64,000 nucleotides of DNA, taken from the NCBI GenBank assembly GCA_964016885.1, contig OZ024748.1, positions 55,862,001 to 55,926,000 on the forward strand. Reading direction: 5' to 3'. A program made the position numbers and the translations under genes. Source of the stretch: Eledone cirrhosa (lineage: Eukaryota). Position 1 is the first letter of the stretch, and every line of letters begins with the position of its first letter. Shown piece after piece: positions 17,301 to 62,002 of the stretch. The notes under the pieces are model-generated. The model did not search any database and had not been told where the DNA came from. It was given only the letters and a program-made list of their open reading frames with translations.

Positions 17301-17487
17301 GGAACCAGTAAGACCCCGACAGCTGAGCTCAAGCCGTTTCGACGGCTAATTCTGCAGAATTAGCCGTCGAAACGGCTTGAGCTCAGCTGTCGGGGTCTTA
17401 CTGGTTCCTATTACCCACTCTACTACCTCAAGTATTGAGTACTTTGGTGCGTTATGGTCCACCTGGTTCCTTACCACTTTTCCTTCG
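17301..17487 (+). mobile_element. TA-flanked fold-back element family A (perfect 108-bp palindrome plus about 80-bp tail)
   Basis: Arms 17301-17354 and 17355-17408; tail hairpin ACTC(17417)...GAGTAC(17437); related copies at 21377, 50178, 54339, 63888. Confidence 0.85.
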
Positions 17488-17936
17488 TTATATATATATA
17501 TATATATATATATATATATATATATATAATCATGGCATTAATATTATTACTGTACACAATTTACTTCCACGTGAATACACCTAAGATAAATATTAAATTG
17601 TACAGTTACAGTTTAGTCGTCTCCATACATAACCACCAATATTTGTGTAACTACCAGACCTATTGGTGCAAATGTTTGATATTTCAAAGCATATTCACTT
17701 AATCTCTCTTATACTGTTGTATACGACGTATTCTTTGAAATAGAAAATTATGTAGAAATAAACATGTCAAACCCGAGGGTAAATGTTGTGTATAACTAGA
17801 ACTTGAATCAATATGTATGTATGAGTATGAATTTATATATGTTCATATATACAAATACGCACACACACACACATATATAGAAACGTATATATATATATAT
17901 ATATATATATATATATATATATATATATATATATAT

Positions 17937-18248
17937 AAGAACAAAAGATGGTTAAAAGAGTTCCGTGTATTTTATTATGCGCATTTCAAAAACAAATATC
18001 ATCATGCAATAATATTTGTGTTTTCATCAGATAAAACAGGAAGACAGGATATGAAGGTTAAAAAACACTTGTGGATAGTGCAGTTTTAAATCAACATATA
18101 TTGAAATGCGCATACTAAAATACATGGAACTCTTTTAACCATCTTTTGTTCTTATATATTATGTATACTCCAGTCCTACAAACTGTAGAGTGCTTCTTAT
18201 CCGATATCTGCATTGCTTTATTGTACTACAATAAAACTCACCTCCTAC
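17937..18248. mobile_element. TA-flanked inverted-repeat element carrying an HHR (PLE/retrozyme-like)
   Basis: Inverted arms about 17937-17989 and 18101-18153; tail hairpin actccagtcctacaaactgtagagtgc. Confidence 0.75.
17969..18037 (-). ncRNA. Type I hammerhead ribozyme, complete
   Basis: GUUUUAU-CUGAUGA-AAA C ACAAAUAUUAUU GCAU GAUGAUAUUUGU U UUU-GAAAUGCGCAUA-AUAAAAU; stem I 7 bp, palindromic stem III AUGCGCAU, AUA cleavage triplet. Confidence 0.85.
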
Positions 18249-19331
18249 ACACACATATATATATATATATATATATATATATATATATATATATATATAT
18301 ATATATATATATATATGTATACATGTAAGTACTAAATGGTAATATAAAATGTAAAATACACGTTACTCTAGAAAATGTATTTACGAAATAATGGGTACGT
18401 TAATAATGAAGAGGTCCATGTCTAGATCAACGCAGATTGCATAAAGCTACTTTATATTATTCTCCATTTTATCATCTACGTTAAAGCATACCGTATGCTG
18501 GTGCTTTGGTGCTATTTGCTCTGACATGCCAATAACCATGCACAAAAGAAACTCTAATGTTTGCAATACTCACAACTCACCTAGTAAATATTTTTTCGAA
18601 TTAGCTGTTGGAAGCAGCTATTCATTCATGAGTATCGATGCCTACTAAAAGTTAGTTAGAAACTGAATGATTGCGAATTTCTCTTTGCCACAATTTATTC
18701 TTAAATTCTTCTGGTTATAGATTCGATATTGTTTTATTTACCATCTCTTCGATTTGACCATGTATTCTCTGTAAAATTTTGTAATGGACTATTTGGAAGC
18801 TCCTTGGAGAGAATATACCTGTAATTTAAATAACTAGCCTTGTCTCATACTTAATATTCCAGTAAAAATTGTTGAGTTTACAAATATATTTTAGCACCAA
18901 AATATGAATCGATACCTGGTTTCGATCTTCAGGTTATAAAGTCAAGAGATCAATTACGCTTTTGGCTTCAGCAAAAGACAATTGCAAAAAATATTTCTGA
19001 TATATATTTTACTGCAATTTATATACAGGGTATTTAGAAAAAAATAGATATCATTTGATATCAGTGAATTATTTGAAACACTTTGTATTTATGAAACCAG
19101 AGAAAATATGTTGGGACAATAGAAACACAATTAGTAAGAGGTATAGAAACAGATATTAAAACAAGTAACTGGAAAATGTCATACATGAGCATATACAATG
19201 ACAGTTAGAACACTTTAATATAACCCATCCTCACACCTAGAGACACGCCACTATATATATATATATATATATATATATATATATATATATATATATATAT
19301 ATATATATATATATATACACATACATACATA

Positions 19332-19518
19332 TACGAGGGTCGGCTGTCATAATTATACCCCCGAAGATTGACCAAATTAGGTTTATTTTTCAACATAGTC
19401 TCTGGAAAAAAAAATACAGTCATGAATAAGAAGAGTTGAAATCAATGCATGCAATATTCCACAGCTCTAGCGTCATTTCTTCATAGGCAGCCAATGAACG
19501 ATTCAGCCAACCCCCGTA
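19332..19518. mobile_element. Tc1/mariner-type MITE
   Basis: TA-cgagggtcggctg...cagccaacccccg-TA imperfect TIRs with TA flanks. Confidence 0.7.
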
Positions 19519-20204
19519 TATCAATATGTATATAAACATGTGCAAACATATACTCACATTTCTGTTATGATAGTTTCAGCAAACAACTTAGTTTCCCAGT
19601 TTGAAGTGTTTAACACATCTGCAATCTTGTCTCCATTCATTGACACGTGTTAGTTAAAACAATCACCAACACTTCTATACTAAAAACAACAAGAAAATTG
19701 TTCTTAAAGGGTAAAATCTGTCCAAACACACCTTATACAGATCTCAGCAGATTCCTATACTACTATGTAAATATTAACTTTCTATATGCAAATATTTTCT
19801 TAACCATATGTCGAAAATATTTAACCATTTCTACATGGACTTATTGATTTGATGCCGAAACATAATATTAAAATACAAATATATATATGTCAAAACAATG
19901 ACGGAAATATATCAGACCAACAGAAAACGAAGAACACGTTAAAAAAATTAATTGAAACAATGAGACTGGCGTATTTAATGTTTATTTATCGTAAAAATCA
20001 AATAAAAAATAAATCCATAATATATTTTAGTGAATAAGTGGATAGGGGAATGGAAATGTATGCCATTTAGTGTTTCCCACTCTTGTTTGAAGAGTATAAT
20101 AAGACTCAGGAAATGAAAAAGCCAAAATATCTGAGACTAATTTTCGAAATCAAATATTCAATCTGCAAATCGGTTTCGTATTTGTGAGAAGAGTTCATAT
20201 TAAT

Positions 20205-59529: not shown

Positions 59530-59970
59530 TGTGTGTGTAAGAAAAGGGAAGTAAGGTTCTATACAAAACGGTGCTTTTATTTTAGAGAAAATGTGAAGTT
59601 GGTAGTAGCACGGAAAGTATATTTTAGGGTCTGTTTTTCTATATTTTTTCATTTCTTTGATTCGTCAAAGTGACGTTATTGAAAAAAATGTGATGGACAA
59701 TTCTCCTTCTCAGCAAGAAAGATGAAAAAAAACTTACTTCTTAATTTTAAATCTTTAATTTTTAGTTTTTAATTCTTATTTATTCTTTTTAATTGTAATA
59801 CTCAGCATTCGATAAGATGAATTTTACTAATATATCGAAACCGGTAATACTTTATATTCTTTATATACATTATAAAACTTTTTTTGAAAATAATTGTCCT
59901 TTTCATTTTGTTAATAATGTCACTTTGACGAATCAAAAAAGGAGGTAAAAAAAAGGAAAAACAGACCCTA
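59530..59970. mobile_element. Inverted-repeat element with variant HHR-like core (59804-59851, +)
   Basis: Arms about 59625-59702 and 59893-59970; AGCAU-UCGAUAA-GAU...AUC-GAAAC CG GUA-AUACU. Confidence 0.55.
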
Positions 59971-60078
59971 TTTCAAACATCATCTTCTCACCCTCTGTCT
60001 CACTTTATCTCTCACTCCTCTCTCTCTCCCTCTGTATATATATATATATATATATATATATATATATATATATATATA

Positions 60079-60619
60079 GTTGTGTTGCGAGGTTTTTGAT
60101 ATGAAATCGTGTGTCGAAACAAATATTGTTATACTTGGGGAGGGTCATATTGTTGTAATAATATTGCCAGAATTAATAACAGAACACACTCACTGTTTGG
60201 TTGGTTTTCGCTTCTGTATCTTTTATATCAGTTAATTCATTCGGTCCTCAGTGTTTACCATTGACTGACCAACGGTAAAAAATACAGATACAATAGAGAT
60301 ATAAACATATATATATAGTCTAACAAAGTTCTTTCGTTGCACATCTGCAACATCGTCAGTGGTGCTATTATGTTCCTCCTGTTTGTATTGTATATTTATG
60401 CCATCTTTATTTAATATGTTTATTTGTTAGACTACATATATGTGTTTATATCTCTATTGTATCTGTATTTTTGACCGTGGGTCAGTCAATGGTAAACATT
60501 GAGGACCGAATGAATTAATTGATATAAAAGATACAGAAGCGAAAACCAACCAAACAGTGAGTGTGTTCTGTTATTAATTCTGGCAATATTATTACAATAT
60601 AACCCTCCTCAAGTATAAC
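60079..60619. mobile_element. TA-flanked element with about 200-bp inverted arms and an HHR core in the spacer (60325-60368, -)
   Basis: Arms 60128-60327 and 60423-60619; CUGACGA-U GUUGCA GAUG UGCAAC-GAAA. Confidence 0.75.
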
Positions 60620-61325
60620 TATATATATATATATATATATATATATATATATATATATATATATATTCAATTGGCAGGTTTTCTTTCACTAATTCTGAAA
60701 CATCGCTATGAAAGTATAAAATATACAGATTAAATATCGAACTCATAGGAGTATTTTAACACATTAAACTTATGCCAAACTTTCAATTAGACTAACTTAA
60801 TTTAGTCGGCCTGACTTATACTCCCTTAAATCGAGATTTTGGCATAATTTTAATATGTTTATGTAAGCATATATTTACACACGTACACATTTTCAAAACA
60901 AAATGAGATTTCATATTGAGGTTTTTATTGATTAGACTTAATTACGGACGTTTCACAGATGGTTGGCTCAGAATCGTTATTTATTTCATAGACACGACTC
61001 TAGTCCCAATCTGCTTATCCGACTTGTTAATCAAGTAAAGCAAAATCTCATACACATATATGATCATTTATAGCAGTAAAAGATATAGATACTTAAGTTG
61101 CGTATGTTTAACACAAACACATATAGTCTGCTATATCGTGTTGGCCGACTGAATGAGATAGTGGTAAACCCTGTTGTAACTAATTATATATAACTCGTCC
61201 GACTGACCAAGTGCTCTAAACGATATCTCATACTAAGTTTGTACTACTATATATATACATACATATATATATATATATATATATATATATATATATATAT
61301 ATATATATATATATATATATATATA

Positions 61326-61438
61326 ATTGTTTTTACTTTTGGCACAAGGCCAGCAATTACCCAGTACATATATATATAATATATAGTAATAATAATAAAT
61401 GTGAAGACTAAAATCCGAAGACGGGGCAATAAGGATAA
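61326..61438 (-). mobile_element. SINE tail fragment plus family C tail fragment
   Basis: ggcacaaggccagcaattacccag; gaagactaaaatcc...ataaggataa. Confidence 0.7.
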
Positions 61439-62002
61439 TATATATATATATATATAAATATTCGGATTTTCTTGGACACATCGACGATATTTCAAATATC
61501 TGAAATCAATGGAGTAGTCTTTTCGTGATCTTAGCCATTATGTGTAGCCGAGCAAACCACATACACATATACACTAAGTATACATATTAGTGGGATTCAG
61601 TATGACAATGAAACTCTTTGAATTACACACACTTCATCTTTTATAGGTGAGTGGTGTTGTGTTCCTAATTGAAATATACCAACCGTATATTAAGCCTCAT
61701 TTCTCTCTCTCTCTCTTTCTCTCTCCCCTCCTCTATCTCCCCCTCTCTCTCCCTCTCTCTCTCTCTCTATATATATACATATATGTGTGTGTATACATGT
61801 ATTTATATACACATGTATATATATATATATATATATATATATATATATATATATATATATAAGCAAAAGGGATATTCAACGTGTTGGTAATTCAACAAAT
61901 ATAAATGTTTATAACTGATTCAAAGCACTCGACAAGTTTTCTGGAGTATAATATTCAATGATATTAAATAAATGGAAACTTTATTTATAAAACCATATTT
62001 AT

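Follow-up and report, generated by a model that had tools for sequence, protein, structure and literature searches.

Penelope-like elements (PLEs) of the Hydra clade carry a bulged stem-loop twice, and each copy probably acts as an RNA docking site that sets the start of reverse transcription slightly upstream of it. The two copies lie 68–94 nt apart between the hammerhead and the ORF, within the 5′ UTR and a short distance before the ATG. Since inserted copies stop before hairpin 1 (the tail-less arm) or hairpin 2 (the tailed copy), the tail, 60–100 nt long in this genome, corresponds to the spacer between the hairpins. We analyzed 64,000 nt of Eledone cirrhosa DNA (GCA_964016885.1, contig OZ024748.1, positions 55,862,001–55,926,000, forward strand), here called the window. 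An initial annotation had proposed that a shared RCTC/GAGY hairpin marks where inverted arms stop, and the seven hairpins that it cited are all present: 17417–17440 (+), 18167–18191 (+), 21201–21181 (−), 25975–25956 (−), 29108–29063 (−), 59448–59466 (+), and 61947–61927 (−). The elements of the window and their hairpins, with families designated F1 to F6 where parent ORFs were traced, are as follows.

17301..17488, + strand: Hydra-PLE stump of F1, flanked by (TA)n runs; palindrome 17301–17408 (inverted tail-less arm and sense arm), then an 80-nt tail; parent ORF L325
17417..17442, + strand: F1 hairpin 1; ACTC, stem TACT/AGTA, TT bulge, GAGT-AC; arm end 8 nt upstream
17938..18249, + strand: F2 element; arms 17938–18152, tail; type I hammerhead 18030–17976 (−) on the inverted arm; parents L100, L337–344
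18167..18193, + strand: F2 hairpin 1; ACTC, stem CAGT/ACTG, TA bulge, GAGT-GC; arm end 14 nt upstream
21142..21336, − strand: F3 element; arms 21336–21205, tail; hammerhead 21241–21292 (+) on the inverted arm; parent L103
21179..21201, − strand: F3 hairpin 1; GCTC, TA bulge, GAGC-AC; arm end 3 nt upstream
21376..21568, − strand: F1 element; hairpin 1 at 21447–21424; arm end 8 nt upstream
25893..26128, − strand: F4 tailed copy; hammerhead 26081–26035, hairpin 1 at 25975–25956; parents L109, L345–352
29021..29167, − strand: F5 tailed copy; long-loop hairpin 1 at 29108–29063, TC bulge; parents L034, L140
36411..36500, − strand: F3-type copy, almost the tail alone; hairpin 1 at 36475–36455; not cited by the initial annotation
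41980..42153, + strand: tail-only copy of a family beyond the six with traced parent ORFs; hairpin 1 at 41998–42031, 6-bp inner stem, TT bulge; likewise not cited
50178..50355, + strand: F1 element; hairpin 1 at 50284–50307; arm end 8 nt upstream
50380..50543, − strand: tail-less F4 copy; hammerhead 50478–50434; stops at (TA)n 8 nt ahead of the hairpin position
53986..54280, + strand: F5 element; arms 53986–54185; hairpin 1 from 54192, GAGC strand decayed
54339..54535, + strand: diverged F1-type element; hairpin 1 at 54466–54489
55186..55391, − strand: tail-less copy of a hairpin-bearing family beyond the six with traced parents (tailed copy in L146); hammerhead 55288–55242
59308..59513, + strand: F6 element; arms 59308–59441, hammerhead 59382–59409, hairpin 1 at 59448–59466; arm end 6 nt upstream; parents L329–334
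61862..62096, − strand: F4 tailed copy; hammerhead 62052–62010, hairpin 1 at 61947–61927
63888..64000, − strand: F1 tailed copy, clipped by the window edge; hairpin 1 at 63958–63935

The full motif consists of RCTC, a variable inner stem, a 2-nt UN bulge, and GAGY-RC. It is thus larger than first described: the hairpin itself had been recognized, and its inner stem, its bulge, and the second hairpin past the tail end had been overlooked. Bare RCTC-N8–40-GAGY pairs occur 36 times in the window, so the 4-bp motif alone is weak. Complementary outer pairs with a loop of 11–38 nt number 26, against 12.3 ± 3.7 in 100 shuffles, and adding the UN bulge and the following RC leaves 11 against 0.64 (maximum 4). 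Within this genome, the suggested compensatory exchange of A-T for G-C holds up, with the outer pair GC in 12 and AU in 7 of 19 hairpins, but the A-T form is rare elsewhere (G-C in 79 of 87). The bases after GAGY vary freely, with T-A, T-G, C-A, and C-G all found; a palindromic duplex site, GAGYRCTC, was ruled out, as Y and R show no covariation. At −2 to −8 kcal/mol, the hairpin has marginal predicted stability; the predicted fold of lowest energy is the bulged one in just 39 of 87 hairpins, and one family, H110, has bulges of 1 nt rather than 2. Wobble pairs (21 G-U vs. 10 A-C) are weak evidence on the strand, biased toward the sense strand. Rfam gave no match above gathering score among the 150 matches listed of 358 in the window, nearly all of them to microRNA models on simple repeats, and a single subgathering microRNA-type match in six read-through loci. 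No description of the twin-hairpin motif was found in searches of the openly accessible literature; a kindred internal start at a stem-loop is already known for one Poseidon element.

To follow the motif beyond this genome, we used 78 marine metagenome loci chosen by their reverse transcriptase (RT) protein alone, without regard to the hairpin. Model hits fell on the sense strand in 78 of 82 cases. Of 110 outer stems located after a hammerhead on the sense strand, 39 enclose an inner stem 3 bp or longer at a bulge size of 2, and 3, 2, 0, and 4 do so at bulge sizes of 0, 1, 3, and 4. Covariation, which the initial annotation had named as a check, is stronger in this inner stem, where 199 of 261 positions pair across the 78 loci compared with 67–88 for shifted partners, than in the outer pair on which the annotation had relied. 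Covariation values of 0.63 and 0.43 from the A2 and A4 pair counts (0 of 500 shuffles as high) depend on selection or model fitting and were kept out of the main evidence. Twin hairpins occur in 34 of the 78 loci, and 15 of 18 assessable repeat ends lie 0–5 nt upstream of a hairpin; a strict-pattern hairpin 1 is missing in 12 of 38 assessable clusters. Curated sequences agree in part: by eye, three of six published Hydra consensi (Hydra-2_Amil, Hydra-2_Ajap, and Hydra-1_Ajap, the last with two copies) bear the hairpin, where it had gone unremarked, and two match only partially.

By sequence, each of the six families cited represents the 3′ end of a Hydra-clade PLE, with its parent ORF traced; families that had been called unrelated are divergent members of one clade. 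Tandem units of L325 and L326 contain a single intact 716-aa ORF with a C-terminal GIY-YIG domain. The N-terminal motif reads RWK in the F3 parent, RWR in F1, F4, F5, and F6, and RWI/RWT in F2, and DKG is changed to DKT in the F1 ORF (position 183 of the open frame) and in the F2 and F3 parents. The F1 linker is CNCPDRSIC (CxCX5C), followed by CNLC (CxxC) and CKH (CxH) near the end of the endonuclease (EN), with no CCHH: a single cysteine lies between the IY and YIG halves, and the F5 parent is alike. The families insert into (TA)n. Hammerhead cores are canonical by pattern in F2, F3, F4, and F6 and deviant in F1 and F5; all 41 pattern matches to a canonical F1 hammerhead were incidental or chimeric, the F1 parent core being deviant, and a search of six loci against Rfam at E values up to 0.05 gave no hammerhead. 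In a quick tree of 52 hand-picked rows, six families of this genome and 40 marine relatives group (SH-aLRT 99) apart from six other PLE RTs; published Hydra families were compared with these by reading, outside the tree. Pfam assigned 0 families to five Hydra ORF pieces at E 0.01, and no relative was found in viral contigs. A Pfam GIY-YIG search retrieved motif-free elements that we label Neptune-type from their CX2–5CxxC linker; the motif lies within 1.6 kb of 3 of 58 of their EN hits, every one beyond or across a (TA)n run. Helitron and Helentron parents encode a Rep-helicase. A terminal hairpin of that kind was rejected, because the parents here encode an RT and GIY-YIG. Non-LTR retrozymes, defined as noncoding tandem repeats with a hammerhead in every unit (bioRxiv 10.64898/2026.07.22.740005), were likewise rejected, since the tandem F1 units are coding and each copy in the window is the truncated end of a coding element.

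Copies end at the hairpins. Scoring was confined to (TA)n-abutting ends of seven families of this genome (n = 206; 96 further alignment ends not abutting (TA)n were left unscored). Of these ends, 193 lie at most 16 nt upstream of a hairpin, 89 at hairpin 1 and 104 at hairpin 2, and the offset is preserved among divergent families. The data support the proposed cis-signal, conserved and associated with the boundary that separates tail-less from tailed copies: end points are far from random, and covariation is present. Details of the proposal needed adjustment: inverted arms stop 8, 14, 3, and 6 nt before four of the cited hairpins (17417, 18167, 21201, and 59448), a range of 3–14 nt rather than 0–10, and no arm belonging to the element at 25956, 29063, or 61927 terminates at its hairpin. 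At 50380, the inverted copy without a tail does stop 8 nt short of its family’s hairpin position. Hairpin 2, just beyond the tail end and visible only in read-through copies, was predicted and then seen in those of F1, F2, F3, F4, and F5 (clear in five of seven families); in F6 the second hairpin is merely degenerate, yet 13 ends cluster ahead of it. Tail-only copies were examined for a concentration of starts at hairpin 1; just 7 of 112 begin between −13 and −4, with three of the references 5′-truncated. In the Neptune-type L141 family, two ends separated by 65 nt both lack the RCTC/GAGY motif, and the motif is therefore not required for having two ends.

We infer RT docking, rather than an endonuclease site, as the function of the hairpin. 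Because copies end a few bases ahead of either hairpin, the pair likely tells the RT where to begin copying, and two starts set in this way would account for the one-sided tail. The element protein would nick both strands of the (TA)n target, and the nicked ends would pair with a short UA-rich patch ahead of each hairpin. Synthesis would then yield two cDNAs running in opposite directions, whose 5′-truncated ends would be joined, so that a tailed copy faces an inverted arm without a tail. As the hairpin that defines an end would not be copied into that end, only tandem or circular RNA that continues into the next 5′ UTR would be a full template. There is precedent in Poseidon, whose PLE protein cuts and extends both target strands from two internal start sites with the tail as spacer; this element needs RNA to nucleotide 172 of the ORF, past its start at 111–118 (PMC11167929). 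Against the docking reading, the Poseidon element initiates inside a stem-loop and at a site reported as nonhomologous to the target (PMC11167929). More tentatively, the twin hairpins may serve together as a docking platform in two parts, conserved among animal phyla, where two RT-endonuclease protomers prime both (TA)n strands simultaneously from one RNA, with only tandem or hammerhead-circularized RNA competent. If so, one rule would cover the tail and the inverted arm that lacks it, as well as the tandem pLTR structure and what the hammerhead is for in these relatives of telomerase.

The end-point data are equally compatible with a cut in DNA at a fixed offset: the insertion might be resolved by the GIY-YIG EN, which would recognize the hairpins in cDNA, single-stranded or extruded, of a circular or tandem intermediate and cut each strand a few bases upstream of them. 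Craig et al. credited the tail to EN-mediated resolution (PMC8557442), the Drosophila virilis EN needs the tail for plasmid cutting as cited by Frangieh et al. (PMC11167929), and the wobble bias toward sense RNA is weak. However, inner-stem covariation calls for a single strand and argues against duplex recognition, the bases after GAGY show no palindrome-keeping covariation, and purified Poseidon protein forms both ends by RT initiation on RNA (PMC11167929). We consider a DNA role unlikely. Slightly less probable still is that the hairpins are RNA-processing signals, the transcript being cleaved a few bases ahead of each one and then primed ordinarily at its 3′ end. This reading predicts the identical end-point pattern, and Anolis RNA-seq read ends coincide with start sites; against it, the Poseidon start in vitro is internal and unmoved by the position of the RNA 3′ end (PMC11167929), and the hairpin has no catalytic core, nor, among the matches listed, any to Rfam above gathering score.

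Microhomology offers another account, in which UA-rich similarity to (TA)n alone sets the ends and the hairpins, lying as they do in the 5′ UTR near the ATG, serve another role there, such as translation or packaging. Both end sites do bear 1–7 nt of TA-like sequence. Nevertheless, 142 of 180 reference TAT/ATA triplets fall outside the two end windows and draw just 13 of the 206 ends, and the constant hairpin offset among divergent families speaks against microhomology alone. We regard this as the least credible of the explanations.

Docking at twin hairpins can be set beside known systems. With the Hydra clade as described by Craig et al. 2021, the elements share a single ORF, RW[K/R], DKT, the CxCX5C linker, GIY-YIG without the CCHH cysteines, (TA)n targets, insertions both in tandem and inverted, and a one-sided tail, together with a pLTR hammerhead of type I that is canonical by pattern in F2, F3, F4, and F6 (PMC8557442). 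They differ in tail length (60–100 nt vs. 30–40 nt published), in noncanonical F1 and F5 hammerhead cores, and in an F1 unit of 3,531 bp, where the clade is described as “generally” <3 kb; no description of a tail hairpin was found there, and “stem-loop” occurs 0 times in the main text (PMC8557442). Poseidon_Ac (Frangieh et al. 2024) shares two internal starts with the tail as spacer, cutting and extension of both strands, a need for downstream RNA, and AT-rich targets (PMC11167929). It is, however, one element that starts inside an AC-rich stem-loop, with no conserved or duplicated motif reported, whereas Hydra elements have a clade-wide twin motif 3′ of each start; RCTC/GAGY was not found in 96 letters from its Fig. 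S1, in which letter order is uncertain (PMC11167929).

For telomerase’s closest mobile relatives, a single in vitro system exists in which to ask how they choose their RNA and make one-sided tails and inverted arms. The motif, being short, covarying, and duplicated and keeping a fixed offset from both ends, lends itself to exact mutants for testing, and young intact Hydra ORFs are present in this genome. An RT start set by a portable hairpin on the 3′ side of the copied region would also be useful in RNA-templated gene insertion, and the motif is a simple marker for classing many unlabeled palindromic repeats as Hydra PLE ends. In the eel LINE/SINE UnaL2, a single 3′ stem-loop is located within the copied region, and priming takes place at the RNA 3′ end. 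This stem-loop resembles the Hydra hairpin in having a conserved stem and internal loop near the 3′ end that are needed for mobilization (PMC1636434). The Hydra signal, in contrast, is double and situated past the end that it defines. Hepatitis B virus epsilon is protein-primed, and its bulge is itself the template, whereas the ends of Hydra copies fall outside the hairpin, with target DNA as the presumed site of priming. Common to both is a bulged stem-loop; that of epsilon is RT-bound and fixes an internal start (PMC10534774), as the Hydra hairpin probably does.

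The elements cited in the initial annotation are short units bounded by (TA)n runs, set in a 3.0-Gb animal genome (29% G+C), probably that of an octopus, with abundant (TA)n. They consist of two arms, one inverted and the other in sense orientation and carrying all or part of a type I hammerhead, plus a hairpin and a tail. All seven hairpins cited there are present at their positions, but the motif is larger than the 4-bp RCTC/GAGY stem. Aligned tails share RCTC, an inner stem and a loop (unconstrained in sequence and in length, respectively), a bulge of 2 nt beginning with U, GAGY, and then RC. 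In the window, the bare 4-bp motif occurred at about twice the chance level (26 observed vs. 12.3), and the fuller pattern with bulge and RC was observed 11 times vs. 0.64 expected. Across 80 stretches, requiring RC and 3 or more inner-stem base pairs gave 44 hairpins at a bulge size of 2 vs. 10–19 in five shuffles; bulge sizes of 0, 1, 3, and 4 gave 11, 9, 17, and 13, about the shuffle level.

Conservation outside this genome was examined in 78 metagenome loci chosen by RT protein alone (the best 80 of 491 confirmed; 61 clusters). A model trained on 19 hairpins from this genome returned 82 matches at E up to 2, of which 78 were on the sense strand. With the inner stem left unselected, 110 outer stems followed a sense hammerhead; 39 of these paired at a bulge size of 2, and 3, 2, 0, and 4 at other sizes. 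Distinct hairpins numbered 87 sense vs. 9 antisense. The initial annotation had proposed a compensatory A-T to G-C swap in the outer stem; the inner stem, which it did not describe, covaries: 199 of 261 pairs were formed vs. 67–88 with shifted partners (first inner pair: C-G in 53, U-A in 26). Hairpin 1, the bulged stem-loop after the tail-less arm end, was found in 26 of 38 assessable clusters, 42–66 nt past the hammerhead core. Visual inspection of six published Hydra consensi showed the full motif in three (coral Hydra-2_Amil and sea-cucumber Hydra-2_Ajap and Hydra-1_Ajap) and a partial match in those from a copepod and an octopus; Hydra-1_Amil does not include the motif region. The hairpin is a real, conserved RNA-type motif of Hydra-clade Penelope-like elements (PLEs).

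The families carrying it had been considered unrelated, a view that we abandon. Each of F1–F6, the families of PLE ends in the window, was traced to a coding parent; that of F1 is a tandem array whose intact 3,531-bp units each encode a 716-aa ORF. Parent ORFs carry RW[K/R], DKT, CxCX5C, CxxC and CxH, with (TA)n targets, all Hydra-clade features according to Craig et al. (PMC8557442). The F1 protein is 39% identical to a sea-cucumber relative over 622 residues. Pfam matched no family to five Hydra ORF pieces, while Pfam GIY-YIG retrieves Neptune-type elements. At first look, a Hydra EN query gave 52,891 candidates in this genome. The strict pattern appeared in 3 of 16 Hydra EN hits, one of them from an adjacent F1 copy; several pattern-negative hits had tail-less, short-stemmed, or variant downstream sequence, and in others this sequence was not traceable to an element end. 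F1 occurs in tandem arrays of four units (G000:C1:437200339-437210965 and C1:91476611-91487271; repeat lengths, 3,531 and about 3,542 bp), and the fetched units L325 and L326 have intact ORFs. The family is young here, with 40 scored copies 97–100% alike (L289-L308, L325; window 17301-17408), and has a noncanonical hammerhead core, stem II of which contains a long insertion. Most F1 stumps fold back 56–70 nt upstream of hairpin 1 with varying junction letters, a 5′-truncation hotspot.

Twin hairpins 58–83 nt apart in 34 of the 78 metagenome loci, and a twin in Hydra-1_Ajap, led to the prediction of a second hairpin immediately past the tail end in read-through copies, which continue into the ORF. 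This hairpin 2 was present in F1 (479 pattern matches; full hairpin at 19 of 20 junctions listed), F2 (256; 8 of 10), and F4 (292; 7 of 8), at one locus each in F3 and F5, and, in a further family, H110 (four loci), as a long form whose bulge is 1 nt. Hairpin spacing, 68–94 nt, equals tail length. Of 206 TA-abutting ends placed on read-through references, 193 lay no more than 16 nt upstream of a hairpin (hairpin 1, 89; hairpin 2, 104), chiefly at −5 to −11; 96 further alignment ends, not TA-abutting, were left out of the score. Among metagenome repeat ends, contig-edge ends excluded, 15 of 18 lay 0–5 nt upstream of a hairpin, microhomology counted. Ends cluster upstream of hairpins, as the initial annotation had held for inverted arms. 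Some tail-only copies (window 36411-36500 and 41980-42153; L310, L033) start a short distance before hairpin 1, at the place where tail-less copies terminate, as though synthesis begun at start 2 had halted at start 1.

An 864-kb sample, made up of the window and 80 evenly spaced 10-kb stretches, was screened without reference to the motif and contained 571 inverted repeats; in 60 of them one arm lay on (TA)n and the tail was no longer than 200 nt. Read by eye, the list showed a hairpin 3–15 nt past the arm end in 24, including 4 F1 variants in which the pattern first matched an earlier ACTC, and farther off in 3. The other 33 had no hairpin by the screen's pattern, and the arm-end rule therefore does not hold for all fold-back elements. 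In Neptune-type elements of this genome, the motif is missing from the elements' own ends (58 EN hits examined); three hits had a pattern match, each beyond or across a TA run. Tails of the L141, L111, and L144 families bear a distinct small hairpin (CTCGTG...CAC type) that may be the Neptune-type clade's own signal. Other PLE ends with a hammerhead and TA flanks, but no RCTC/GAGY motif, occur at window 60128-60619, 63752-63845, and 34824-36049, the first similar to those located downstream of non-Hydra ORFs (L037, L137). The window further holds an abundant SINE-like family of ∼180 nt, frequently in tandem or inverted pairs (1265-2050, 10315-11620, 16605-16989, 20197-20923, 27140-27581, 49340-49521). 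A 326-aa G+C-rich open frame (31861-32841, minus strand), presumably akin to the C-terminal zinc-knuckle and endonuclease region of RLE-type non-LTR elements, overlaps a hammerhead-like core on the opposite strand (32768-32819, plus).

The structure covaries, lies in sense orientation, is duplicated, and keeps an offset to both ends. Each hairpin is probably a protein docking site that fixes a start just upstream. The start would be set at a UA-rich patch pairing with nicked (TA)n, and one start per target strand would yield a tail-less inverted arm and a tailed copy. The behavior of Anolis Poseidon (PMC11167929) supports docking: purified protein cut and extended both strands, two internal starts bounded the tail, RNA beyond the start was required, and the protein was predicted to be a dimer. 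Under docking, solo copies would lack their own end signal, so masters would have to be tandem or circular, as the model predicts. Its weak points are the low folding energy of the hairpin, the small, degenerate second hairpin of F6, and the Neptune-type L141 family (also L142, L146-148, L152), in which two ends that abut (TA)n are separated by 65 nt and lack the motif. Cleavage of DNA forms of the hairpin by the endonuclease is an unlikely alternative to docking, RNA processing at the hairpins is somewhat less likely again, and that microhomology alone sets the ends is very improbable.

The conserved, duplicated, bulged hairpin had no Rfam match, and full-text searches of non-subscription papers, Repbase notes aside, returned no description of it. 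The clade to which these PLEs belong is already known, and for one other element, Poseidon (PMC11167929), a tail is known to be tied to two starts.
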